DNA of 28,923 nt. Origin: a virus. Its lineage: Duplodnaviria; Caudoviricetes. The stretch covers positions 1 through 28,923 of the IMG/VR virus record IMGVR_UViG_3300036546_000156; one strand, given 5' to 3'. Positions 1-28,113 of this stretch are shown one piece after another. The number at the start of each line of letters is the position of its first letter. The stretch's first letter is position 1. Under the pieces are notes generated by a model, which was not told the DNA's origin, searched no databases, and saw only the letters and a program-made list of their open reading frames with translations. Made by a program: the position numbers and the translations under genes.

Positions 1-30
1 ATAGCGGAATGATTAACGAGGAGGGTGATT

Positions 31-453
31 TTGAGCAGTAAAAAAGAAAACATCATAACCCTCGCTATCGCCACATCCCTTCTCCATGCAGAAGGGCAAC
101 AACAGGGCGGGAAGTACAAGCGAGAAATTGAAAACCTATGGGCGATTGTAGATGTTGAGAGTATGCTCATAGGGAATAGTTTCACAAGAGCAATAGCCAA
201 GCACGTGAAAAAAAACGTTGAAATACTTAAGACTCTTGACGACAAGCAAGCTGAACGCAGGACGATGATACTTGACATGTTAGCAAAGGTCATTTCGGGG
301 TTCTCAACACAGTCAGCCTACAAATACAAAGTCTATGTGGAAGAGGTTGAAAAAATCACAAACAAGTTCATTCATTGGTGGACAGATGCCTTCAATTGTG
401 ACATAAGCGAGGCAGAAGAAGCGGTTGATGAGATGATAGGGAACCTAAAATAG
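31..453 (+). CDS. hypothetical protein
   Basis: ORF 25..453; GAGGAGG at 18-24 abuts the GTG at 25, so the in-frame TTG at 31 is the likelier start. Confidence 0.7.
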   Translation: MSSKKENIITLAIATSLLHAEGQQQGGKYKREIENLWAIVDVESMLIGNSFTRAIAKHVKKNVEILKTLDDKQAERRTMILDMLAKVISGFSTQSAYKYKVYVEEVEKITNKFIHWWTDAFNCDISEAEEAVDEMIGNLK

Positions 454-479
454 AAAAACTAAAAAAAAGGAGTGTCAAA

Positions 480-674
480 ATGATGGTTGATAACAAAGAA
501 TACGAGACAATCGCTAAAAGCATGGCTGAGACAGTTTCCACAATGATAAACCTTACAAACAACACAAGGAGCTGTGGTGTCGACTACATGGCATACTTAA
601 TATTCGATGAACTGACACCGAAATCAAAAGATCTCATCGCCGCCATAAACGAATTAATTCTAATAAGAGGTTAA
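480..674 (+). CDS. hypothetical protein
   Basis: 64-aa ORF with AAGGAG RBS, packed against neighbours. Confidence 0.7.
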   Translation: MMVDNKEYETIAKSMAETVSTMINLTNNTRSCGVDYMAYLIFDELTPKSKDLIAAINELILIRG

Positions 675-677
675 GTG

Positions 678-1364
678 ATGGGTATTATAGGCGTAAATAT
701 GCAAGATGGAGAAACTCTTGAACAATACCTTGAGCGAATACGCAAGGAGAAAGAGAAAGCTAAGCAGAATAGGCGAAGAGGGAGACCCTTTAAAAATGCG
801 TACCGCAAGAGACTGAAAAAGCTCAAGGATGCAGGGGTTCTCAAGTGTGATGCTGGGAGATACGATAAAGACCATTACACACTTAGAACAACTAACAATG
901 AGATTAAGCTGGATGTGAAAAACCTAGCTATAATCCAGATGCATAACTTCGGCATGGATGCAAAGGAAATATCAACACACCTAGATATCCCGATAGACTC
1001 TGTGCGTAAATACATTTCACGAGGGTTCAAGAAGGCTCAGGCATCGGTTATGATGGAGTGGTTGAAGCTCAGGCTAGGCAGACTGAACGCAACGGAACGG
1101 CTTGTGATAGAAGAGTTTTTCAAGAAAGCTTTGAACATGGTGGGCGTGAGCGAGATGGAAGCTCCTGAGTTCATGCGAGCATTGGCTCTTGAGGGTGTTA
1201 TAAAAGTTGATGATTGGTTCGTGGTTGAAAAGATGGGGTTATCCGAAGAGGAAATGAGCGAGGCAAAGCGCATAAACCCTGATTTCGACCAGAAACAGAG
1301 GATGCTGGACTATATTGATGAGAAGCTGGGGTATGATAGGTTAGAAAAGGAGAAGAAAAAATGA
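678..1364 (+). CDS. putative DNA-binding protein (sigma70 region 4-like HTH)
   Basis: MDAKEISTHLDIPIDSVRKYISRG is HTH-like; basic RRRGRP segment; GAGG RBS fits the ATG at 678. Confidence 0.55.
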   Translation: MGIIGVNMQDGETLEQYLERIRKEKEKAKQNRRRGRPFKNAYRKRLKKLKDAGVLKCDAGRYDKDHYTLRTTNNEIKLDVKNLAIIQMHNFGMDAKEISTHLDIPIDSVRKYISRGFKKAQASVMMEWLKLRLGRLNATERLVIEEFFKKALNMVGVSEMEAPEFMRALALEGVIKVDDWFVVEKMGLSEEEMSEAKRINPDFDQKQRMLDYIDEKLGYDRLEKEKKK

Positions 1365-1546
1365 GTAAATATATAGTATCTGTGCATGTGAAAAATAAAA
1401 GCAATAGCTTAATCCTGCATGTTGAAACGGCTGTAGACGAATATCCAAAAACCGCATCATTATCAGATGTTGTAAGCAATGTTGTGGATGTCATCGCACC
1501 TGACTTGGAAGTGGAATCAATAACAGTGAGAAGTACCGATGGGTAA
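1361..1546 (+). CDS. hypothetical protein
   Basis: 61-aa ORF, AAGGAG RBS, overlaps both neighbours. Confidence 0.65.
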   Translation: MSKYIVSVHVKNKSNSLILHVETAVDEYPKTASLSDVVSNVVDVIAPDLEVESITVRSTDG

Positions 1547-2903
1547 AGTAGCGTACCTTTGTAGCTCAATCCAACTACAAGACCAGTTGTTAGCAGATTT
1601 CCCAGAAGCAGGATACTTGAAAGGGCGGAACAACTACCCTTGCCTATCGTCTGGCAGGACTGCCTCAGATTGTACATGGAGCATGGATGACCCTTGTAGT
1701 TTCCGCATGAGCTGTCCTTATCAGCTACAAAAAACAGAGCTAATGAATAACGACGTACATATACTAAACTATCACTATTTCCTATACGCTGCAAACTACA
1801 CAGAGAAATTCAGCGATTATGACCTAGTGATATGCGATGAGGCGGACACGTTAGAGCAAATCCTAACAGATTTCATTTCATTTCAGATTTCGGATTCTGC
1901 AATGAAACGCTACGGTATCCACAAACCCTCAAAGATAGACAACAAATCTCAAGGGGTTGAAGAAGTGTGGCGTGAGTGGGTGAAGTCCTCAATAGCCAAA
2001 ATCCGCAAGTATCCGCTTGACAAGCTACCTGGCGACAGGGACTCTCAGGAGTGGAAAATAGCCGTTAAGAAGCAAAATTCACTACTCCAAAGCCTTGCGT
2101 ACCTAGGTAGCAATATCAACGCTCAAAACTGGATTTTTGAGGCTGACAAGTATGGTGTTTCATTCAAGCCCGTGTGGATAACACCGCAGATGTTTGATGA
2201 GTATTTCGGGCGACATGGCGAGAAGTTTATATTCATGTCTGGGAGCTTGCCTGACGAGATGACATTCTGTAAGACTCTTGGGCTTTACCCAGCAGACATA
2301 GACTATTTTGTGCTTGACTCAGATTTCCCAGTAAAGAACCGACCAGTATATAAAATGTTCAGTGGTTCAATGGGGAGGAAAAATCAAGACGCTACCTTGC
2401 CAAGGATAGTTAAGGACTTGGAGAAGATATTCGACAAGTACCCTGATTATAAAATCTTAGTCCATACTGTGTCTTACGCACTGCAAGAGAAGATATGCGA
2501 GTTGGTAAAGAATAAAAGGATACTGACGCATAATTCACAAAATAAGTTAGAAAAGATTGACGAGTTCAAAAAATCGAGGTATCCTTACATATTCCTGAGT
2601 CCTGTGTGCAGCAGAGGGGTAGACTTACCAGATGAGCAATGTAGGGTGAATGTGATACTAAAAACACCGTTTCCCTACCTAGGAGACAAGTTAACAGCTC
2701 TAAGGTTCTACGGTAACGGTGAGATAGGGAGGCGTTGGTACAAGTCTATGGCTTGTCAGGAGATTATCCAGATGTGTGGCAGAGGGGTTAGACATAAGTA
2801 CGATTGGTGTCATACTTATGTACTGGACGATGATGGATGTAAGCTGTTAAGTGATAAGGAAATGTTTAAAGAATGGTTTTTAAAAGGAGTTAGTTATGGC
2901 TGA
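1539..2903 (+). CDS. DinG/XPD/Rad3-family SF2 helicase-like protein with Fe-S cluster, lacking Q motif and Walker A
   Basis: Motif Ia (YLCSSIQLQDQL), LKGRNNYPC plus three more Cys, ICDEAD, MSGSL, SRGVDLP, QMCGRGVR. Confidence 0.85.
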   Translation: MGKVAYLCSSIQLQDQLLADFPEAGYLKGRNNYPCLSSGRTASDCTWSMDDPCSFRMSCPYQLQKTELMNNDVHILNYHYFLYAANYTEKFSDYDLVICDEADTLEQILTDFISFQISDSAMKRYGIHKPSKIDNKSQGVEEVWREWVKSSIAKIRKYPLDKLPGDRDSQEWKIAVKKQNSLLQSLAYLGSNINAQNWIFEADKYGVSFKPVWITPQMFDEYFGRHGEKFIFMSGSLPDEMTFCKTLGLYPADIDYFVLDSDFPVKNRPVYKMFSGSMGRKNQDATLPRIVKDLEKIFDKYPDYKILVHTVSYALQEKICELVKNKRILTHNSQNKLEKIDEFKKSRYPYIFLSPVCSRGVDLPDEQCRVNVILKTPFPYLGDKLTALRFYGNGEIGRRWYKSMACQEIIQMCGRGVRHKYDWCHTYVLDDDGCKLLSDKEMFKEWFLKGVSYG

Positions 2904-3102
2904 TTTTTGTTTTAAATGTGGAGCTGAGTTAGACTTTATCAAAATTGACAGTTGGGAATATTTGTATGTATGTAAAAGATGCGGGGAACTTTATCTTGAG
3001 ATAGTTGATGACCCCATGGGTGGAGTTACAGGCTCTATCAGCTCTATAACTCAAGAACAGTTTGACCGTATTATAAAAAAGGAAGGAGTTAGTTATGGAT
3101 GA
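2896..3102 (+). CDS. small zinc-ribbon protein (paralog 1)
   Basis: CFKC...CKRC; AGGAG RBS. Confidence 0.8.
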   Translation: MADFCFKCGAELDFIKIDSWEYLYVCKRCGELYLEIVDDPMGGVTGSISSITQEQFDRIIKKEGVSYG

Positions 3103-3313
3103 TTTTTGTAGCAAGTGTGGAACGGAGTTAGACATTATAGCTTTAAGCAAAGATGGTGAATGGAGCTCTTTGTGGATATGTAAGAGCGGTGAGCACTTCT
3201 ACCATAAAATAGAAGGTGACGCCATGGGCGGCGGTATTGATGATATGCGCCTCATAAGCAAAGAAACTTTTGAAGCAAAAATAAAGTCTGGTGATTATCG
3301 TAAACTAATATAA
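3095..3313 (+). CDS. small zinc-ribbon protein (paralog 2)
   Basis: CSKC...CKSGEH; aligns with 2896..3102 (DFCxKCGxELDxI, W, DxMGG, F..xIK). Confidence 0.8.
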   Translation: MDDFCSKCGTELDIIALSKDGEWSSLWICKSGEHFYHKIEGDAMGGGIDDMRLISKETFEAKIKSGDYRKLI

Positions 3314-3325
3314 AAGGAGTAAGTT

Positions 3326-3556
3326 ATGGATAAGTTGATGTATGCGGTTCAAGATGTTTTAAGTGGTGATATTGGCGCGCTAGGCACAAAAGAAGTAATC
3401 TTGGAAGCTCTTATGGCTTTTGATGTATCTGCACCTAGTTTTGACCCTAGAGAGAGAGGTGTGATCAAGGTTTACCGTCTTGAAGAGATGGGTGAAGAGT
3501 CAATAGCGGAGTGGTTGGATAATGCGGAAGCGAAATCGGAAGGAGAGATGAAATGA
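3326..3556 (+). CDS. hypothetical protein
   Basis: 76-aa ORF with AAGGAG RBS. Confidence 0.7.
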   Translation: MDKLMYAVQDVLSGDIGALGTKEVILEALMAFDVSAPSFDPRERGVIKVYRLEEMGEESIAEWLDNAEAKSEGEMK

Positions 3557-3858
3557 TAACATCAGAGCAGATACAGCAAAAACGAGATGAGTCAGCAAGA
3601 GTGAATAAAGAACTGTTAGAGCTTGGGCTTGCATATGCCGAACAAGAATGTCCTTTTGCTGTGTGGGACATTGTTGAGGTAAAAGGTTATACTTATAAAG
3701 GCAAAAAGATGCAAGTAATAAAAATAGTAGAGCCAAGGCACGGACTTCAATATGGTAATACTTGGCGAGTTATAGGTATTGTGCTCAAAAAAGATGGAAC
3801 ATTTTCTAAAGCCTTAACCGAAATGTCTCAATATCAATATGAAAAGAGCAAGGCATGA
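3553..3858 (+). CDS. hypothetical protein
   Basis: 101-aa ORF, ATGA overlaps at both ends. Confidence 0.7.
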   Translation: MITSEQIQQKRDESARVNKELLELGLAYAEQECPFAVWDIVEVKGYTYKGKKMQVIKIVEPRHGLQYGNTWRVIGIVLKKDGTFSKALTEMSQYQYEKSKA

Positions 3859-4694
3859 AGACGCACATAAGCATATCCCAGCTCAAGCAGTTCACGCAAT
3901 GCCCTATGAAGTGGTATTACGGTTACAAAGAGCAGATACGCATAAAACCTGAACTGAAATCGTCGCCGCTCAAGATGGGTACATGGTGGGATTTGTTCAC
4001 CAAAAGCCAGTATTCTAAACTCACGGTTGATGAAGAGGCAGAATTTCAAACTACCATAGACAACATTTCAGACATAGACAAGGTGAAATTATATGCACTG
4101 GCTAATGTGTTTAGCGAGTTCATCAACACAAAAACGGACAAAAAAGTGAACACGCAGAAGGAAGTTTCTGTTGCAATCGAGAACTCTACAAGGTATGATA
4201 AGGTACTCGGCTACCTAGACAGATACGACGGTGATATATATGAAGTCAAGTTGTCAAGTAGACCAGAGAACTATTACACTTTAGAGAACATCGAAATGCA
4301 GATAGGTTTCTACTTCATAGGATGTCCAGAGGCTAAAAAAGCAACAATGGAAGTGACTCGTGTCCCGCAGCTCAGAATGGGCAATGGCGAAACCTACACA
4401 ACCTTCCAAAACCGTATAGAAGAGGATATAAAGTACAACCTAGCGAAATACTTCATAGGCTACAACCCATCCGATTCAACATATGGCAAGTTGTTTTATC
4501 GCACAGATTTCCGCCTAGATGCGGTCTGGTATCAGGTAGAAAGTGTTTGCAAAATCATCGATTATATGGTACAATCGGATACGTGGTTTGCCAACACCGA
4601 GGATTGTAGCAAGTTTAGTGGTTGTGATTTTTTCGACATATGCAGACTGGGGATTTATAACGAGAAAAAGTATAGTATAAAAGGAGGTGAGTAA
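3855..4694 (+). CDS. PD-(D/E)XK exonuclease (RecB/AddB/Cas4-like, probable Fe-S)
   Basis: N-terminal HISISQLKQFTQCP, GYLDR...YEVK catalytic motif, C-terminal CSKFSGCDFFDIC. Confidence 0.85.
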   Translation: MKTHISISQLKQFTQCPMKWYYGYKEQIRIKPELKSSPLKMGTWWDLFTKSQYSKLTVDEEAEFQTTIDNISDIDKVKLYALANVFSEFINTKTDKKVNTQKEVSVAIENSTRYDKVLGYLDRYDGDIYEVKLSSRPENYYTLENIEMQIGFYFIGCPEAKKATMEVTRVPQLRMGNGETYTTFQNRIEEDIKYNLAKYFIGYNPSDSTYGKLFYRTDFRLDAVWYQVESVCKIIDYMVQSDTWFANTEDCSKFSGCDFFDICRLGIYNEKKYSIKGGE

Positions 4695-5462
4695 GTGATG
4701 AAAATCAAGAAGGCTAACGACTTGACAGGAGAAGAAGCTCAGGCGAGAACAGTTCTCTTGTACGGTGAATCCAAGGTAGGGAAATCCTTGAACTGTATCC
4801 CCCGCTCAGGGAAAACACTCTACATCCAAGTAGAAGCAAATAACCCTATGCCTGAACTAAAAGCATTAGGGGTTGACGTTTCCCATGTAGATGTGCTACA
4901 ATGGGGAGTAACAAACTGGAGAGAGTTCAGAGAGTTTATGAATGACACAAAGAACCTTGACGGCTATAGGTACTGCGTGGTAGACTCATTCACGGAGCTT
5001 ATGGGCAGGTGTTTTGACGAGATAGTGTCAGAAACACGTCAAGCGACAGCAACGAAAAAAGGGGGGTTGTCACTAGGAGCAGAAGTTCGAGCAGAGCAGT
5101 CAGACTACGGTGCAATAGGTCAAATGATGATACAGTTCTTCCGCTCGCTTGAGCAGTATAAGTTCACAGGAACGAATATAATTTTCACTTGCAAGCTGTC
5201 GGTTGATAACTACTACGAGTACCCTATGATAGTAGGTCAGTATTTTAAAGACAAACTACCATACTTCGTAGACCTAATAGGCAGGGTAAAAGAGAGACCG
5301 CTTGACGAGAACGGCAAGTATCAATTACCAGTGGTTTATTTCCACAGTAAAGATAAGTCATTTGAGGCAGGTTATCGTGGGGCATCGGCTGAGTTCAAGT
5401 ACAAGCCACAGGTTTTGGATATTGAGCGGATAATCAGTAACAGTTTCAAGAAAGCTGAGTAA
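4695..5462 (+). CDS. AAA_24 / Sak4-like ATPase, ssDNA-annealing recombinase
   Basis: Walker A LLYGESKVGKS, Walker B VVDSFTEL; lies between exonuclease and SSB-like gene; AAGGAGGT RBS. Confidence 0.8.
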   Translation: MMKIKKANDLTGEEAQARTVLLYGESKVGKSLNCIPRSGKTLYIQVEANNPMPELKALGVDVSHVDVLQWGVTNWREFREFMNDTKNLDGYRYCVVDSFTELMGRCFDEIVSETRQATATKKGGLSLGAEVRAEQSDYGAIGQMMIQFFRSLEQYKFTGTNIIFTCKLSVDNYYEYPMIVGQYFKDKLPYFVDLIGRVKERPLDENGKYQLPVVYFHSKDKSFEAGYRGASAEFKYKPQVLDIERIISNSFKKAE

Positions 5463-5528
5463 TTAAGTATCTAAAATAAGAAAAACAAAGTGTTCAGCGT
5501 GGAGCGGACACAATATAAGGAGAACCAA

Positions 5529-6119
5529 ATGAAATTTGTAATGAAAAAAGAAGTAGAGAAAACAGGCGAAGAAGGATTTCAGACAACCAAGTATCCAGAG
5601 AATGGCACTTTCACATTTCAGCTTATAGGTGGCGACCGTGGTACAGGCATTGAGCAGACACCTAACGGCAAATTCGCACTCACTATAAAAGGTAAAATTA
5701 TAGCCGATGCAGATGGCAAAGAAACAGAGTTCACAGGTGCGTTCTACGAGAATAAGGTATGGTTTGGTGATAATGGCTCCTACATGGATTATATCCAGAA
5801 AGACCCTTCACGTATCCAGAACGTGCTTGACTTCTTCTCAGCACTCCTCACAGAAGGTGAGAGAGATGAGTTCCTTCGTGTTTTCGGTGAGGACATCGAC
5901 CTTTTCGACCCTAAGCTCGCAGCGTGGATAAATGAGAGAGCTGAAGGATGTAAGTTCAAAGCTTTTGTACAGAAGCAGATGGAAACTTACACTAACAAGG
6001 ACGGTGAGGAGAGGACAAGAAGATTTCTCAAGCCTGCCGGTTATTGGGAAGCCCTTACAAAACAAGGTAACGCTACATCAGCCGACTCAGGATTTGACGG
6101 TGAAGACGAGCCGATGTAG
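5529..6119 (+). CDS. putative single-stranded DNA-binding protein
   Basis: Follows Sak4-like gene; beta-rich; acidic tail DSGFDGEDEPM; AAGGAG at 5517-5522 supports ATG 5529 over GTG 5490. Confidence 0.65.
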   Translation: MKFVMKKEVEKTGEEGFQTTKYPENGTFTFQLIGGDRGTGIEQTPNGKFALTIKGKIIADADGKETEFTGAFYENKVWFGDNGSYMDYIQKDPSRIQNVLDFFSALLTEGERDEFLRVFGEDIDLFDPKLAAWINERAEGCKFKAFVQKQMETYTNKDGEERTRRFLKPAGYWEALTKQGNATSADSGFDGEDEPM

Positions 6120-6218
6120 CGATTAAAAAATAGGCAATATCTCTTATAGATGCGGAGGAAACTCTTAGAAACAACCTAATGATTATATGTAGTTCAGAAA
6201 ACCTTTGTAAGTAAAGTT

Positions 6219-6257
6219 AGGGGCTGGGTTGTAATGTGCCCAGCCTTTGGCTTTTCT
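6219..6257 (+). terminator. probable intrinsic terminator
   Basis: GGCTGGG (6222-6228) / CCCAGCC (6239-6245) stem followed by an interrupted T tract TTTGGCTTTTCT. Confidence 0.55.
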
Positions 6258-6279
6258 AAGATAATATAAGGAGAAATAA

Positions 6280-6495
6280 ATGAGTAGGTTTATAGAGCTT
6301 AAAGGATTGGATGGTTCTAGAATATCAATAAAGGCTGAGGATATATCTTCAGTAGACGAGTATAACAATAGTCCCTTGTATTGCGTAGTATCCACAGACA
6401 GAAGTATTATTAATGGATGGAGAACTATTTTTGCTTACGATGATGTAATGAAGATGATAAATAATGCTTTAGCAGATATTGAAGGGGATGAGTAG
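6280..6495 (+). CDS. hypothetical protein (weak FlbD/SwrD-like pattern)
   Basis: AAGGAG RBS; FIELKGLDGSRISIKAEDISSV. Confidence 0.7.
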   Translation: MSRFIELKGLDGSRISIKAEDISSVDEYNNSPLYCVVSTDRSIINGWRTIFAYDDVMKMINNALADIEGDE

Positions 6496-6840
6496 ATGGA
6501 AGATATAAGACTTATTTACCGCTGCGAAAGAAACCAATTTAGCATCAAGGGGGGTGTTGCCGAGACAATAAAACTCGTTAAATTAAAAAGTCTTTCTACT
6601 GATTGTGAGGTATCAAACAATACCCACAACTGCATCCTTGAAAATGCGGCAGAAGGCTTTCTCTCTCTTGCAGAACTTGTCGACGGTTTCGCTTATCAAG
6701 CCAAACTGTACGGGTACGATGAAGATTATGATATTGTTTTCGAGCCATATCCTGACAAGCAACACGCAAGCCTTTATGCAGAAGGGATTAAAAGATACTT
6801 GCTTAAGCAGGAGTCCGCCCATAAGAGAAAGGAGGATTAA
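6496..6840 (+). CDS. hypothetical protein
   Basis: 114-aa ORF abutting the previous stop; AAGGGG RBS. Confidence 0.7.
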   Translation: MEDIRLIYRCERNQFSIKGGVAETIKLVKLKSLSTDCEVSNNTHNCILENAAEGFLSLAELVDGFAYQAKLYGYDEDYDIVFEPYPDKQHASLYAEGIKRYLLKQESAHKRKED

Positions 6841-6841
6841 A

Positions 6842-7108
6842 GTGAGCAAATTAGCAGGAGTGATACTTTTCTTATATATAACCGTTCAACCGATAATACT
6901 TTTCCATTACACGAAGAAGTATGTAGACAACCAATTTGAACAATTAACAACCAACTTAACCATGGGGCTTAAGAATATGACAGGTTCGATGGATGGGTAT
7001 CATGATAAAATGATAACCCTAGCCGAGCGTGACGGCATGACAACCGTCATAATCCTGAGTGACCTAGTTGCGGAGCAACTGGAGGATATAAGGAGAATGA
7101 GTGAATGA
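6842..7108 (+). CDS. small membrane-anchored protein
   Basis: 3' part of ORF 6605..7108; AGGAGG precedes the GTG at 6842; hydrophobic LAGVILFLYITVQPIILF. Confidence 0.65.
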   Translation: MSKLAGVILFLYITVQPIILFHYTKKYVDNQFEQLTTNLTMGLKNMTGSMDGYHDKMITLAERDGMTTVIILSDLVAEQLEDIRRMSE

Positions 7109-7665
7109 TGCGATTCAATCCAAACAAACATAAACCAAACCAAGTTAAACCGAACCTGAAGAGGCAGTTCCTTAAAAAGCTTCAGCCGTTAAAAAGTTTC
7201 AAGATGATAATAGATACAAGAGAGCAGCAACCCTTACCAATAGAGACCCATTGCCAAGTGGTCCATAAAGCTTTAAAAGACGGTGACTACAGCATAGAAG
7301 GTTATGAGCACTTATTCGCAATAGAGCTAAAGCGAATGTCTGACCTTACATCATACATCTACGCAGAGCATGAGAAGACTTCTAAAAAGAAACGCAGGTT
7401 CAAACAGATGATAGACAATGGCGGCTTTGTAGCTCTTGTCATTGACGGGGTTGAATACAAGGATATATTAAAAGGATACCAGTATGGAGGGCTTACGCCT
7501 AGCCATTACGAAACATTCTTGACCCGCTTGAAGCTCAAGTACGGGATACATATCTTTGCCTCTAGGGATAGCAAGGAGCTTGCTAGATGGGTTGTCAGGC
7601 ATGCGTTAGAGTTTTATGAATTACAGAGGGAACTTGAGAAGGAAGGTTCAGGTGCGGATGAGTAG
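7105..7665 (+). CDS. ERCC4/XPF-type nuclease (possible junction resolvase)
   Basis: IIDTREQQP, LKDGDYSI, AIELKRMSDL motifs. Confidence 0.85.
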   Translation: MMRFNPNKHKPNQVKPNLKRQFLKKLQPLKSFKMIIDTREQQPLPIETHCQVVHKALKDGDYSIEGYEHLFAIELKRMSDLTSYIYAEHEKTSKKKRRFKQMIDNGGFVALVIDGVEYKDILKGYQYGGLTPSHYETFLTRLKLKYGIHIFASRDSKELARWVVRHALEFYELQRELEKEGSGADE

Positions 7666-7685
7666 TAGATTTTAAAGGAGTTCAT

Positions 7686-8237
7686 ATGAGCAAAGAGACA
7701 GAAGATATAGAGCGGGTAGAACAGAAATCCCAAGCGACAGCGAAGGAAAAAGTTGATATATTCGCTGAGATAAACGAGTTCTACGGTCACAAGTTCCGCA
7801 CGAAATTCGGAAAGCTAACATCGGAAGCCATGAGTCGAACCATGTCAACATTCCGAGTAGACCCGCTGGCTTTTAACATGATAGAGAAAATCATGGAGTA
7901 TGGTCGTGGAAAATACTGGAGTAAGTCAGACCTTGTGCGTCATTGTTTTCTCATAGGGCTTTGTATAGAATTCCCTAGGCTCTTCCACGAGACAGGCGAA
8001 CCAAACAAGTCAGAGCTTCGTAATTTAATGTGCAACTTCTTATCTATGAATGAGATAGAGAACAGGATGAATTACTTGGATATTGTCGATAAAGAAGCTG
8101 ACAGGCTAGATGATGCGCAAAGGAAAGGGTTAATTACGCATGACGAAATAATAAAGGCAAAAGAGGAGTTGATTAAAAACGCTCCTGATGGTATAAGTAG
8201 AGAGGCTGTGAAGCGTAAATTGCAGGGAGGGTATTAA
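7686..8237 (+). CDS. putative ribbon-helix-helix DNA-binding protein
   Basis: STFRVDPLAFNMIEKI...SKSDLVRH matches the RHH pattern; AAGGAG RBS. Confidence 0.55.
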   Translation: MSKETEDIERVEQKSQATAKEKVDIFAEINEFYGHKFRTKFGKLTSEAMSRTMSTFRVDPLAFNMIEKIMEYGRGKYWSKSDLVRHCFLIGLCIEFPRLFHETGEPNKSELRNLMCNFLSMNEIENRMNYLDIVDKEADRLDDAQRKGLITHDEIIKAKEELIKNAPDGISREAVKRKLQGGY

Positions 8238-8239
8238 AA

Positions 8240-8434
8240 ATGATAACCGTATTTAGGAGAAGTTTAATCAACATGGTTGGTTTTAATGAAGAAGAGGGGA
8301 TTATTTATATTTGGCATGGCGAGGTTCGTTATGATTTACATAGGCCAGACACAAAAGAACATTACTTTTTTATAATTAATCAGTTATTTAATACTGATTC
8401 CGAATTTATAAATACTTTAAAGTGTGAAAAATAA
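8240..8434 (+). CDS. hypothetical protein
   Basis: 64-aa ORF with GGAGG RBS. Confidence 0.65.
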   Translation: MITVFRRSLINMVGFNEEEGIIYIWHGEVRYDLHRPDTKEHYFFIINQLFNTDSEFINTLKCEK

Positions 8435-8453
8435 AAAAGGGGAGGGTATTGAT

Positions 8454-8567
8454 ATGGGTTGTTGTCCAGAATGTGGGAGTCCAGTGCAACCGATAGAGGG
8501 TTGTTTTTTGTGCATGATATGTGGTTGGAGTAAATGTGGTTACTATGAGCTTGGAGGTATGGATTAA
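8454..8567 (+). CDS. 37-aa zinc-ribbon miniprotein resembling the C-terminal Cys-rich tail of class II ribonucleotide reductase
   Basis: Not in the ORF track; translates MGCCPECGSPVQPIEGCFLCMICGWSKCGYYELGGMD; GGAGG RBS; TAATG coupling to the next gene. Confidence 0.75.
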   Translation: MGCCPECGSPVQPIEGCFLCMICGWSKCGYYELGGMD

Positions 8568-8902
8568 TGTGGGATGAAAAGGGTGGATATGGATTCAATT
8601 TCCCTAAATTCATAGGCGAGGTGACAGAGGATATTCAGGTGGACAAGATCGTGGAAGAGGCTGAGGAGTATCGCATAGAGGTAAGGAATGGTGATAGGCT
8701 AAAAGCTGGCGTAGAGTTGCTTGACATTATACACGCCTGTGAAACCAGATTAAGGCAATACACGACTCAGGAAATCTTAGCGTGCAAGGCTCACGTGTTA
8801 GAAAAGAATGGTGATAGAGGCTATTACGACAAGGAAACCACAGGAATGGTAAGAGTTGGGAAGCTGTTTAGAGAGTTGGAGATAGGTGGAGGCGAGGAAT
8901 GA
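8567..8902 (+). CDS. MazG-like all-alpha NTP pyrophosphohydrolase
   Basis: KIVEEAEE...VELLDI acidic motif; C-terminal KNxxRGYY. Confidence 0.6.
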   Translation: MWDEKGGYGFNFPKFIGEVTEDIQVDKIVEEAEEYRIEVRNGDRLKAGVELLDIIHACETRLRQYTTQEILACKAHVLEKNGDRGYYDKETTGMVRVGKLFRELEIGGGEE

Positions 8903-9330
8903 ATAATCCTGAAAAAGTAGAAAGTGGCTCATGGAAATACACTTGTCCTGAATGTGGTAAGGTTTCTTATTCTATGCTTGATTCTCATTCAACAATATGT
9001 TTTTCTTGCTCCGTATCACAAGATAATGTAAATCCGCTAGTCGCATCAACTGAGCAACTCTTTTCAGAGGCTCTTGAGACCATGAAACGGAAGAACGCAG
9101 ACTATGCAACCACGGATGATGTATTATCAAATTTTAAAATGTGTGAGCATCGTGGAAACTGTAGTTTGGAAATTGGTATAGTAAACAGGATTGATGATAA
9201 AATAGCAAGAGTATCTAATCTTCTTAAGCGTGAGGCTCAGGTGAAAGACGAGAAGATAACCGACACTATCCAAGACGCTATTAACTACCTAGCGATTTTA
9301 CACTACGCAATAGAAAATAAGGAGAAGTAA
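8899..9330 (+). CDS. DUF1599 / nucleotide-modification-associated domain protein with N-terminal zinc finger
   Basis: KRKNADY...NF...RIDDKIARV...DTIQDAINY; CPEC...CFSC. Confidence 0.7.
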   Translation: MNNPEKVESGSWKYTCPECGKVSYSMLDSHSTICFSCSVSQDNVNPLVASTEQLFSEALETMKRKNADYATTDDVLSNFKMCEHRGNCSLEIGIVNRIDDKIARVSNLLKREAQVKDEKITDTIQDAINYLAILHYAIENKEK

Positions 9331-9864
9331 ATGAGAAGTTTTGTAATGTTAGACATTGAGACTTTGGACACTAAAAATACCGCTGTAATTTTACAGATAG
9401 GCGGATGTATCTTTAACAGAGAGAGGCTTGTTAATAAATTCAGGATAGACTTAGACTGGGAGAATGAGCGAGCAAATAGAACTATATCCAATGCCACTCT
9501 TGCTTGGTGGCTAGCGCAAGATGAAAATGTTCGCAGTGATGTGTTTTATGGTGGGCAAAGAGTTGCTCCAATTGATGCTTGTGGTTCATTAGACTATATA
9601 TTGCCTGCTGATTTTGATTCTATATATTCTAAAGGCTCATTTGATTTTGATATACTGGAAAATTTATATAAAAGTATGGGGCTTATTGCACCATGGAACT
9701 TCAGGCAAAAAAGAGACTATAGGACAATGCTCAAGGTAGCTGAGGACATATACGGATTCAAGGAAGATAAAAGCAACAGTCATAACGCAATGGATGACGC
9801 TGTGAACCAAGCCGAGAACTTGATAAAAATATTCAGGCTTATGAAGACGGGTGTTCAAAGATAA
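9331..9864 (+). CDS. DEDDh 3'-5' exonuclease (Rv2179c-like)
   Basis: MLDIETL, SFDFDIL, RDYRT, HNAMDDA. Confidence 0.85.
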   Translation: MRSFVMLDIETLDTKNTAVILQIGGCIFNRERLVNKFRIDLDWENERANRTISNATLAWWLAQDENVRSDVFYGGQRVAPIDACGSLDYILPADFDSIYSKGSFDFDILENLYKSMGLIAPWNFRQKRDYRTMLKVAEDIYGFKEDKSNSHNAMDDAVNQAENLIKIFRLMKTGVQR

Positions 9865-9875
9865 AGAAAAGTAAC

Positions 9876-9904
9876 AAAAGGCAGGGTTAACGCTCTGCCT
9901 TTTT
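9876..9904. terminator. intrinsic terminator, potentially bidirectional, ending the early region
   Basis: AAAAGGCAGGG-TTAACG-CTCTGCCTTTTT. Confidence 0.85.
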
Positions 9905-9915
9905 CATATCCGCAA

Positions 9916-9944
9916 TTGACAGCAGTATTAATTTAATATATACT
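9916..9944 (+). promoter_or_regulatory. sigma70-type promoter for the packaging genes
   Basis: TTGACA (9916-9921), 17 bp, TATACT (9939-9944). Confidence 0.8.
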
Positions 9945-13457: not shown

Positions 13458-13655
13458 ATGGCAGAGTTTATAAAGTTAAAAATCAGAGAGCCGAGGCTAA
13501 ATAACCCAGAGAGGATTATACACAGGACGATTAATCCTAAGTGTATAGAGTATTATGATTTTATCGATGGCGAGACAATCATATACTTTATCAGTGGGGT
13601 ATCTATGGTGTGTGTTGAGAATTTAGACGACTATATGGTGGAAGCCAATGACTGA
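13458..13655 (+). CDS. hypothetical protein (weak FlbD/SwrD-like pattern)
   Basis: GGAGG RBS; FIKL...INPKCIEYY...TIIYFISG...VENLD. Confidence 0.65.
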   Translation: MAEFIKLKIREPRLNNPERIIHRTINPKCIEYYDFIDGETIIYFISGVSMVCVENLDDYMVEAND

Positions 13656-14529
13656 TAACCAAAAGAGGATTATTGAGCTAGCTAAAGAAGGTAAAGGTGC
13701 CCGCATTATCAGAAAGGAAACTGGTTACGCACGAGGTTATGTTGGCAGGGTTTTAAAGAAATATGGTTATAGCCAGAAAAGTCTCCAGCGTGGGGTTGAG
13801 AAGTATCTAGTCATAACCGATGCGCATTTTCCTTATGGAGATAAGCAATGTATAGATACTATAATAGATTATGCGAAAGATGAGCAGGTTGACCATTTAA
13901 TCTGCTTGGGCGACATGTTTGATATGCACGAGATATCTAAGTGGGGCGACAAGTTCCGCAAGCCACTTGAGGATGAGATTGAAGAGGGTAAGCAACAGCT
14001 TAACGATTGGGTTCTAAGTCGTATTGATTTTAAAAAGAAGATATTCATAAAGGGTAATCATGAGGATAGATTAGAGAGATACATAACACTTAACGCTCGT
14101 AAGATTCAGAATTTACTTGAGCGAAAGGGTTTTGACATTCCCTCTTTAACAGGTCTTAATGATATGGGTTTTCAGTTTATAGATAACATCCAACACAGGA
14201 TAGACAGTGGAAACTTCTTTAAGATAGGTCACTTACACTTTATCCACGGTCACGAAATAGCTGGTGGCGGTAAATATCCAGCACGGAACAAACTGATGAA
14301 ATCCCACGATAACGTGATTTTCGGGCACTTTCATAAAACGGATGAGGCGATAGAGTTTAACCTGAGCAAGAAGCCTTCTAAGTGCTGGAGCGTGGGTTGT
14401 AGTAGTGGGCTATTACCTGAATATATGGTCTTTAATGAATGGAATCAAGGGTTTGCGATTGTAACATTCAAGCCTGATGGAAAATTTTCGGTAGATAATA
14501 AAGTTGTGGTTGACAGAGAAGTGTTTTAA
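13648..14529 (+). CDS. calcineurin-like metallophosphoesterase with N-terminal HTH
   Basis: DAH, LGDMFD, GNHE, HGH, GHFH motifs; N-terminal GKGARIIRKETGYARGYVGRVLKK. Confidence 0.9.
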   Translation: MTDNQKRIIELAKEGKGARIIRKETGYARGYVGRVLKKYGYSQKSLQRGVEKYLVITDAHFPYGDKQCIDTIIDYAKDEQVDHLICLGDMFDMHEISKWGDKFRKPLEDEIEEGKQQLNDWVLSRIDFKKKIFIKGNHEDRLERYITLNARKIQNLLERKGFDIPSLTGLNDMGFQFIDNIQHRIDSGNFFKIGHLHFIHGHEIAGGGKYPARNKLMKSHDNVIFGHFHKTDEAIEFNLSKKPSKCWSVGCSSGLLPEYMVFNEWNQGFAIVTFKPDGKFSVDNKVVVDREVF

Positions 14530-14538
14530 TGGTAAGGT
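14510..14538 (+). promoter_or_regulatory. sigma70-type promoter overlapping the end of the phosphoesterase gene
   Basis: TTGACA (14510-14515), 17 bp, TG-n-TAAGGT (-10 at 14533-14538). Confidence 0.55.
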
Positions 14539-14543
14539 AGATA

Positions 14544-14633
14544 ATTGAGTTTCTAGGACGGCTAAGTTTTTAATTTTCTTCTCAGACCTCCTTTTCGATT
14601 TAAGCCCTTAGTGTAAAAGCTAGGGGCTTTTTT
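14544..14633 (+). ncRNA. candidate ~90-nt small RNA with exposed anti-Shine-Dalgarno
   Basis: Promoter, no ORF, CU-rich TTTTCTTCTCAGACCTCCTTTTC, then intrinsic terminator. Confidence 0.5.
14602..14633 (+). terminator. intrinsic terminator
   Basis: AAGCCCTTAGT-GTAAAA-GCTAGGGGCTT followed by a T run. Confidence 0.9.
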
Positions 14634-14749
14634 CGTGTCCCGACACCTATTACACAACTAAATATTAACTATTGATTTTACGAATAACGCACCACATTAT
14701 ATATACAACGCTTACTATAGCGGAAAAATATAGGATAAGGTGAATTATT

Positions 14750-16719: not shown

Positions 16720-16861
16720 GAAACTCTTTATAATCGAGTGGAACACTAAACTGTTTCTATATAGGGAAGGTTTGTTAGATGAGCGAGACAGTCTCGCAGG
16801 ACTCATTCAAGACTTTGAGCGAAACAATCAACCTAGGGATTGATGAAGAGGAGGATTAATC

Positions 16862-17398
16862 ATGGCGGTAGCTATTAACGCAACAGAAGGCGGGGCTGAT
16901 AGCAATTCTTACGTGACGTTGGCTGAGGCTAATGCAGAGTTGGAATATGTGTTCGATTCTGAGTGGTCAAGTGCTACAGACGACGAGAAGACTATTGCGC
17001 TGGTGCTCGCAGCTCGGAAAATAGATAGTTTCGGGTATTATGGCACTATAGCTTACGAAACCCAGAAGATGCAGTTCCCTAGGTACTTCAGAGAGACTTC
17101 CAGAACAGCGACACTGCTTAGCGGTGCGACTAGTTATATTCAGAGAAACGATGTGCCTATAACCCCTGAGAATGTGAAAACTGCTCAGATACATGAGGCT
17201 CATGAGATCATAAAGATGAAGAAGTTACTCGCTAATAACCGTACAACAAGGGAAGACTTGATTCGTCAAGGTGTTAAGTGGGTACAGATGGGCGAGAACG
17301 TTTATGAGCGGTATGAAAAGAGTTATTTAGAGCCGTTTATATCTCCAGTAGCACAGAGATTAATGCAGGGAATAATCAAGACACAGGTGGCTAGCTAA
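16862..17398 (+). CDS. head-tail adaptor (often annotated DnaT-like)
   Basis: SNSYVTLAEA, QKMQFPR, PENVKTAQ; GAGGAGG RBS. Confidence 0.8.
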   Translation: MAVAINATEGGADSNSYVTLAEANAELEYVFDSEWSSATDDEKTIALVLAARKIDSFGYYGTIAYETQKMQFPRYFRETSRTATLLSGATSYIQRNDVPITPENVKTAQIHEAHEIIKMKKLLANNRTTREDLIRQGVKWVQMGENVYERYEKSYLEPFISPVAQRLMQGIIKTQVAS

Positions 17399-19711: not shown

Positions 19712-20074
19712 ATGGCAGGAAAGAAGAAGTTTACAAACGCTAGGGATGCGTTTTACGCAACGAAGAAGGTACCAGAGTATGTCGATATTACGGCTTCAGG
19801 TGATTGGGGTGAGCTTGAGTTCAAGGCTCGCAAGATGACATATGGCGAAGTTGTGAAGTTTTCCAAGCTTAAAGACTCGGATGACCTTGTTGAAGGCATA
19901 CTTTACCTGAGCGAAATAGGCGTAATTACTAATGCTGATGGGTCTGTGATGTTCGAGAAGGCTGACAAAGACTCTATGCTTGGTTCTGAGATGAGCGATG
20001 TTCTTGTTGACATCTACAGTGAAGTTGGCAAGATATTTGGTGCTCAGATTGAGGAAGGCAAGGAAAAAAACTAA
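19712..20074 (+). CDS. tail assembly chaperone (gpG-like)
   Basis: Between tube and tape measure; GAGGTG RBS fits ATG 19712; ends EKN* on a slippery site. Confidence 0.85.
   Translation: MAGKKKFTNARDAFYATKKVPEYVDITASGDWGELEFKARKMTYGEVVKFSKLKDSDDLVEGILYLSEIGVITNADGSVMFEKADKDSMLGSEMSDVLVDIYSEVGKIFGAQIEEGKEKN
20065..20071 (+). other. programmed -1 ribosomal frameshift site A AAA AAC
   Basis: X XXY YYZ heptamer in the correct phase before the stop; downstream stem GCAGGTG/CACCTGC. Confidence 0.85.
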
Positions 20075-20256
20075 AAGCAGGTGATAGGCGAAGCGAAGGG
20101 GCTTTGTGCTTGAAGCTTGGTTTAACACCTGCGGAATTAAGAACTTTACCGTACGAGGACTACATGTTGCTTAGCTTTGCTTATAGCGAAGAGATTAAGC
20201 AGGAGCAGGAATGGAAAAAGACGTTGCTCAGGTCTAACGGTGCTAAAATAAGATAA
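20071..20256 (+). CDS. -1 frame extension of the tail chaperone (gpT-like part of gpGT)
   Basis: LKAGDRRSEGALCLKLGLTPAELRTLPYEDYMLL...GAKIR*; no obvious independent RBS/start. Confidence 0.82.
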   Translation, partial: LKAGDRRSEGALCLKLGLTPAELRTLPYEDYMLLSFAYSEEIKQEQEWKKTLLRSNGAKIR

Positions 20257-20347
20257 TATGAAAAGGTTTGAAGGATAAGAGGTTTCACCTCCGCTCCACA
20301 ACCACACAGGAGAGGGCTTGCTTGGTTTATGCTGGGCAAGCCTTTTT
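20256..20347 (+). ncRNA. second candidate ~90-nt small RNA or structured 3' UTR
   Basis: Extended -10 TGCTAAAAT (20241-20249), TCACCTCC anti-SD-like, terminator. Confidence 0.35.
20315..20347 (+). terminator. intrinsic terminator
   Basis: GGCTTGCTTGG-TTTATG-CTGGGCAAGCC-TTTTT. Confidence 0.85.
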
Positions 20348-28041: not shown

Positions 28042-28113
28042 TGGTTACATGCTACACAAAATAGCTATTGATTTTTGGCATGATAATTGATATATATAAT
28101 ATAGGAGAAGATA

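Follow-up and report, generated by a model that had tools for sequence, protein, structure and literature searches.

Does the short gap that follows the phosphoesterase gene of an uncultivated tailed phage, with its pyrimidine-rich tract and terminator, encode a small RNA, and if so, which messages would such an RNA bind? The gap lies in virus record IMGVR_UViG_3300036546_000156, and the window that we analyzed is the whole 28,923-nucleotide stretch of that record. The record is 54% complete, and the source of both sequencing runs that contain it is shale-gas metagenomes. All PHROG-annotated genes in the window are on the plus strand. Replication and recombination genes occupy 25-9864, followed by terminase, portal, phosphoesterase, scaffold, capsid, and tail genes up to the window end; PHROG profiles gave no integrase match in the window. 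We call genes upstream of the terminator at 9878 early and those downstream of it late, a label given by position and not by timing.

A candidate small-RNA unit after the phosphoesterase gene

An earlier note on this DNA, made from the sequence alone, described 14510..14633 as a -35 element, an extended -10, about 90 nt free of ORFs, a pyrimidine tract, and a terminator, in that order. All of these elements are present (Table 1). With promoter, ORF-free stretch, and terminator in place, a stand-alone small RNA unit, termed E1 here, is plausible. The spacer between the -35 and the -10 is 17 nt. The -10 is weak, matching three of six consensus bases in addition to the TG, and the promoter is missing from the list of a consensus scanner because of this 3/6 match. 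On the plus strand of the window, TTGACA-17-TAnnnT occurs at two sites, 14510 and 9916, the latter upstream of the terminase genes; TTGACAG and TTTAAT are common to both promoters. ORFs of at least 40 aa are absent from both strands of 14530-14660. The first terminator called downstream of the one at 9878 is that at 14602, which has the metallophosphoesterase gene as the last before it and would also end the upstream terminase-portal-phosphoesterase transcript.

Table 1. Coordinates of the features discussed, as positions in the window
Feature	Position	Strand	Details
Early leaders with AAGGAG (12), candidate target class	467..9324	+	467, 1347, 2884, 3083, 3314, 3540, 4681, 5517, 6268, 7090, 7675, 9319
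Sigma-70-type promoter, near-consensus	9916-9944		Directly 3' of the early terminator, 5' of the terminase genes
Metallophosphoesterase gene	13648..14529	+	phrog_221, E 2.8e-32; PF00149
-35 element, TTGACA	14510-14515	+	Sequence; perfect hexamer
Extended -10, TG-n-TAAGGT	14530-14538	+	TG 14530-14531, TAAGGT 14533-14538; putative promoter element
Predicted small RNA E1, ~90 nt	14545..14634	+	No ORF; fold; ends predicted from promoter spacing and terminator
Imperfect 5' stem, weak, 14-nt U-rich loop	14555..14592	+	Partly covers the seed; minimum-energy fold
Pyrimidine tract	14574-14596	+	Sequence
Seed ACCTCCTTTT	14586-14595	+	Resembles the 3' half of the 16S anti-SD; contains CTCCTT 14588-14593
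Intrinsic terminator	14602-14633	+	11-bp stem (14602-14629) and U-tract
Leader of late head-tail adaptor gene 16862	16838..16866	+	Best accessibility-weighted E1 site: net -13.1 kcal/mol; shortened E1 -16.4
Second unit E2, ~93 nt	20241..20347	+	Extended -10 20241-20249 in the end of ORF 20104-20256; terminator 20314-20347

The final codons of the phosphoesterase gene contain the -35. The protein ends in V-D-R here, versus N-G, N-G, and S-G in its three closest homologs, and glycine occupies that C-terminal position in 17 of 20 homologs (unaligned C-termini, compared by eye). The arginine codon in place of glycine completes TTGACA; since the closest relatives encode N-G or S-G, a full TTGACA is impossible at that place in them. 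The change from glycine to arginine may be read as mild evidence of selection for the promoter.

The reference for the seed is ACCUCCUU, the 3' end of 16S rRNA. The earlier note held that the predicted RNA displays this seed. The fold (z = -2.6 for 14544-14636) showed otherwise: at minimum energy, the seed pairs with the 5' part of E1 itself, so that it is partly paired, as the 3' side of a weak stem, and not freely exposed. The stability of this stem is unexceptional, with 373 of 1000 shuffles as stable. Opening costs about 3.3 kcal/mol for CCUCC and 1.8 kcal/mol for CUCCUU, and removal of the 5' arm is predicted to free the seed.

DNA of close relatives was found in none of IMG/VR, JGI metagenomes, GTDB, and GenBank phages; as proteins, close relatives compare at 61-63% for capsid, 42-47% for portal, and 52-67% for phosphoesterase. 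Searching 30 virus records with E1 as DNA gave no hit, and none of 119 ACCTCC-terminator matches was an E1 homolog. Five exact 17-nt matches to E1 were rejected as homologs, their flanks being unrelated. Contig pieces covering E1 from two DNA runs have no variant letters there. Separately, run X1 contains a 337-nt contig that is about 85% identical to the phosphoesterase 5' region (window 13602-13935) and ends before E1; judged by this identity, it shows a related phage within the same run.

Early and late leaders and their pairing with the seed

The link between E1 and the early genes proved stronger than first described. AAGGAG is found in 12/21 early versus 0/21 late leaders (p = 5e-5; 1e-4 with three paralogous leaders collapsed; 3e-4 for genes of at most 200 aa). 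With automatic gene calls, it is the top early/late discriminator among all 5-6-mers (11/19 versus 0/21), and none of 2000 permutations of the labels did as well. In the same test, 0/22 control phages came under 0.05; power is lower in these controls, whose gene calls are noisier and which mostly use AAGGAG less. Outside leaders, the motif is about equally frequent in early and late regions. Late leaders carry AGGTG, TGGAGG, or GAGGG instead, and the shorter GGAG is found in 17/21 early versus 7/21 late leaders. An early AAGGAG bias exists in control phages generally (79/864 versus 17/360). Furthermore, six unit-bearing genomes gave an OR of 2.6 versus 1.75 in seven controls of comparable SD use, so that the leader split is no clear signature of the RNA; this window is an extreme case of the split, not the rule. 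Three neighboring small early genes at 2896-3556 have near-identical leaders, and the first two, which begin with zinc ribbons, appear duplicated.

The pairings reported earlier are all where they had been placed: AAAAGGAGGT at 4679-4688, GAGAAGAAAA at 1350-1359, and GAAAAGGAG at 1344-1352, with AAAAGGAG in early leaders at 465, 1345, 2882, 3312, and 4679. Hybrid energies were -17.7 kcal/mol for leader 4695 and -15.9 kcal/mol for leader 1361, and -6.3, -8.4, and -9.2 kcal/mol for scaffold, capsid, and tape measure. The proposed specificity for the Sak4-like gene and gene 1361, on the other hand, failed a shuffled-flank control. With accessibility included and the ACCTCCTT core fixed, flank-shuffles paired with early leaders as well or better in 40/40 cases for full-length and 53/100 for shortened E1; with CCTCC fixed, 37/40 were as good as full-length E1 on early leaders. 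Early versus late pairing gave p = 0.051 for full-length and p = 0.026 for shortened E1. The early preference of shortened E1 was matched by 5/100 CCTCC-fixed but 39/100 ACCTCCTT-fixed shuffles, with no gain beyond the 8-mer, placing the information in the UU that extends CCUCC.

When sites are weighted by accessibility, the leader of late gene 16862 (Table 1) comes out best, which is an exception to the early-only picture. Gene 1361 is also among the best sites, and late gene 10448 ranks third. None of the best phage sites beats shuffles, of which 12-22 of 40-100, and in another comparison 31/100, were as good. Long hybrids from unrestricted duplex scans of the window were discarded as artefacts. 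E1 is probably a real sRNA that acts on a leader class and not on specific targets.

Recurrence of the layout in other phages

We scanned IMG/VR for the layout, defined as a strict promoter, CTCCTT, and AGCCC, and grouped the hits into families by eye. The scan gave 51 stretches, 40 of them distinct, in about 17 families (L438 and L467 appear related). Their likeness to E1 is one of architecture, without homology. A terminator starts at AGCCC in 9/17 families, versus 50/2738 background AGCCC sites and 1/21 sites with the seed and no promoter. The corresponding p value is 1e-4 if promoter and AGCCC alone yield 13%, which is our own estimate, and 0.012 at 25%. Short terminated units were found in 9/17 families versus 3/124 unselected promoters under strict settings and in 12/17 versus 15/124 under loose ones; a differently built terminator detector gave one such unit among 146 unselected promoters.

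Several features outside the scan pattern also recur. A T follows the seed in 12/17 families and TC in 6/17. An anti-AUG lies 4-12 nt upstream of the seed in 10/17 families, though not in E1. In 9/20 records, the -35 is within -18..+13 nt of the upstream co-oriented stop; that of E1 is at -20. Rfam, run on 16 of these loci, returned no family over the unit apart from a single sub-threshold match at E 0.5. A search of 401 bacterial genomes found the layout zero times with the real seed and zero times with permuted seeds, a comparison without power. In the literature covered, with most subscription papers outside its scope, no description of a promoter-CUCCUU-terminator layout was found.

In a shuffle test of the best leader match, 4/20 records fell below 5/100 (G037, its homolog G045, G039, and G040). 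The match in G040 is a self-overlap. In L448/L471 (G037 1/100, G045 0/100) and L460 (G039 1/100), complementarity between the RNA and a neighboring gene's leader beats shuffles; the genes are, respectively, a 364-aa gene and a Mu-like transposition protein gene (phrog_296).

Two further groups came to light. About 22 stretches (L436, L440-L485) form a large phage RNA family directly 3' of the endolysin gene. Its members have a variable 5' hairpin, CCTCCTTTG, and a terminator, and are convergent with a 51-52 aa hydrophobic ORF; the invariance of CCTCCTTTG is partly circular, since members were picked by the seed. Additionally, an RNA-like element recurs in L140, L166, L167, L171, and related stretches; it combines a terminator with ACCTCC in duplicate, and many near-identical copies of it are among the ACCTCC-terminator matches.

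Proposed action and competing explanations

The reading that we favor, while holding it at a little under an even chance, is that E1 is a small-RNA gene whose seed covers the AAAGGAG SDs of early phage, and probably host, mRNAs as a class, with late messages mostly escaping. E1 would be transcribed from its own promoter or would form the 3'-terminal part of the terminase-portal-phosphoesterase mRNA. The seed would open at 1.8-3.3 kcal/mol, or the 5' arm might be removed by a cut in the U-rich loop. The CUCCUUUU seed would then pair across the AAAGGAG Shine-Dalgarno sequence of early leaders and block ribosome loading. This would deny ribosomes to early phage genes and to many host genes, and the scaffold, capsid, and tape-measure leaders would pair weakly. 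Because the seed is the only sense-strand complement of an SD signal found in over half of the early and none of the late leaders, E1 would likely mute early and host synthesis and spare virion genes. The weakest step is timing: a sigma-70-type promoter should fire early unless controlled, and the 9916 terminase promoter is of the same type.

This reading builds on observed elements, namely the layout itself, a unique seed, the leader split between early and late genes, and the recurrence elsewhere. Against class-wide silencing stand the paired seed, the GGAG kept in 7/21 late leaders, the late position of the best site, and the weak -10. With respect to its possible origin from an mRNA, E1 is reminiscent of 3' UTR-derived sRNAs such as SdhX, a type marked by Hfq binding and RNase E processing: its terminator is common to the operon mRNA, and cleavage within the U-rich loop would release the seed. 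It differs from that type in having its own candidate promoter.

Alternatively, the region may simply be where the terminase-portal-phosphoesterase operon ends, with an ordinary 3' UTR and a terminator. The tract would then be there by chance, and the leader split would stem from a nuclease or repressor encoded in genome sequence that the record lacks, from host defence, or from different ancestry of the modules. The record is 54% complete, third-position base use does differ between early and late genes (T at 0.27 versus 0.35), and the early AAGGAG bias is general among phages, all of which fit this explanation, as do the ordinary 5' stem and weak -10. How often a tract of this kind precedes a terminator bears on it directly. 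CCTCC lies within 45 nt of 9/180 control terminators, implying a 14% chance of a second case among three window terminators; at 80 capsid-related loci, it is upstream of 7/148 terminators, with its position not conserved. In IMG/VR, ACCTCC followed by a terminator is found in about 410 stretches versus about 350 for a permuted hexamer, so that without the promoter it is barely enriched.

Other counts argue against a plain 3' UTR. CTCCTT has a single copy on the plus strand of the window, exactly in E1. CCTCC occurs twice on that strand, both times in intergenic units 5' of terminators (the second at 20288), and is absent from coding regions, where codon shuffles predict 4.4 occurrences. An 8-nt match to the 16S tail lies 5' of 2/4 window terminators versus 1/180 controls. 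Taken as a replication test, the second anti-SD unit gives p of about 0.02 for the 8-mer and 0.14 for CCTCC. What exceeds chance is the anti-SD and terminator combined with the promoter and the early/late leader split. With a perfect -35 and a TG at the right distance, and a recurring layout with features outside the scan pattern, we consider the plain 3' UTR unlikely and a functional RNA at E1 likely.

Phage sRNAs described so far mostly have single host or phage targets. E1 might be a real anti-SD sRNA with host mRNAs, or else one or two phage genes (e.g., 16862 or 1361), as its targets, possibly constitutive in a lysogen like SprX of converting phages. E1 is phage-encoded, in a record with terminase, portal, capsid, and tail genes. 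SprX (RsaOR), from S. aureus converting phages, acts on the host target spoVG through a UCCC motif exposed in a loop; as a phage-encoded sRNA, it places a C-rich stretch on a Shine-Dalgarno sequence and blocks ribosome loading (PMC4005690). The action proposed for E1 is alike. They differ in that the CUCCUUUU of E1 lies in a weak stem arm and is aimed at the phage's own early leaders. E1 has no sequence or structure match to SprX in Rfam at E up to 5, and its seed, CUCCUU, is outside any loop. A host or single-gene target would agree with the host-type promoter, with 16862 and 1361 as best sites, with the SprX precedent (PMC4005690), and with the two other families (G037/G045 and G039) whose best leader match beats shuffles. 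However, no best phage site of E1 does so, the window has no integrase match, and the 12/21 versus 0/21 split is left unexplained. We regard this alternative as improbable.

The RF02278 Betaproteobacteria toxic, or double-hairpin, sRNAs, described from Burkholderia genomes, are 57-92 nt long with an unpaired CU-rich stretch and an intrinsic terminator (PMC5688073, PMC4603805); a further criterion of the family is growth inhibition upon expression in E. coli. The predicted length of E1 falls within 57-92 nt (PMC5688073 Table 1), and its CU-rich stretch is likewise just 5' of an intrinsic terminator; the stretch is unpaired in RF02278 RNAs, whereas the E1 seed makes up the 3' side of its weak stem. 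RF02278 is the best Rfam match of E1, over 14575-14634 (24.5 bits, E 0.52). Membership was rejected, the score being below the gathering threshold of 50 and the first model stem broken in the alignment. By analogy, E1 would work like the SprX and RF02278 RNAs but belong to neither.

The second unit, E2 (Table 1), lies 5' of the tape measure gene and is not homologous to E1. It holds TCACCTCC at 20285-20292, including the CCTCC at 20288, within a hairpin that costs about 8 kcal/mol to open, and in its own operon, tail assembly gene 19712 has a leader to which the TTTCACCTC of E2 is complementary over 9 bp. E1 and E2 match the 16S tail over 8-9 nt, each a different half. Era and S1 are proteins that recognize this tail, and the two units might be decoys that mimic it, binding its recognition proteins or soaking up SD-rich RNAs without direct leader regulation. 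The matching of different halves and the locked E2 seed, poor for pairing, would suit decoys, but the anti-AUG in 10/17 same-layout families points to mRNA pairing; we find the decoy reading highly improbable.

Pairing of E2 with 6152-6167 did not reach significance across the window, where 148/200 shuffles were as good; when only intergenic regions were considered, the count was 25/1000. The surrounding 160-nt intergenic region, 6120-6279, has a GGAGG with no gene after it, is folded in its 5' part, and forms a strong hairpin at 6214. Its TCTCTTA, followed by a small GAAA-loop hairpin, resembles a boxA/boxB nut site, for which it is a candidate.

We give hardly any weight to a cis-antisense RNA (type I antitoxin-like) or a relic ribosome-binding site of a lost minus-strand gene: the minus strand does read as a strong SD, and an ATG stands at SD spacing in 10/17 other families (frames of 2-47 aa), but the minus strand here has no ATG, GTG, or TTG at SD spacing and no ORF, and is thus not a reverse gene's ribosome-binding site, the reverse frame of the homologs L448 and L471 is 4 aa in one and 27 aa in the other, and a type I antitoxin was rejected since no opposite-strand small ORF with SD and start overlaps E1.

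If E1 silences early leaders as a class, as we favor, it would be an RNA counterpart of T4 RegB action. RegB is an endoribonuclease that cuts GGAG/U and selectively silences early mRNAs through their SDs (PMC9409239). The proposed outcome is the same, SD-selective silencing of early mRNAs that eases the move to late expression; the difference is that RNA pairing is proposed here and the discriminating motif is AAGGAG. No RegB-like nuclease was matched among 46 (PHROG) or 28 (Pfam) window proteins, in a record 54% complete. In the available text of a 2025 review of phage sRNAs (PMC12197685), Supplementary Table S1 excluded (38 uncharacterised sRNAs, which may bear on novelty), no SD-class-selective phage sRNA is described, and the accessible part of 10.1101/2021.04.21.440840 has nothing on early versus late genes.

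A still broader view, which we hold as doubtful, is that E1 is one of many widespread, repeatedly evolved, and uncatalogued phage sRNAs that mimic the 16S tail, often with an anti-AUG. They would act as an early-to-late and host-to-phage translational switch, with virion genes shifted to SD variants that the seed cannot cover, a RegB-like shut-off by RNA alone. If true, sorting of mRNAs by SD variant would provide protein-free timing of phage expression and a takeover of host ribosomes, and would give a reason for the early/late leader difference in this phage. With the promoter-CUCCUU-terminator layout carried by about 17 further families, such units could also offer a compact tool for class-wide translation control.

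Two minor observations concern the late region. The same 11-mer, CTATTGATTTT, is found at 14669-14679 and 28065-28075, in AT-rich gaps 5' of the scaffold gene and of fibre gene 28114, and CTATTGATTTT is a possible late-promoter element common to the two genes. At 20060-20074, an A-run ends gene 19712-20074 and is followed by a second frame to 20256, making the run a candidate tail-chaperone frameshift site.
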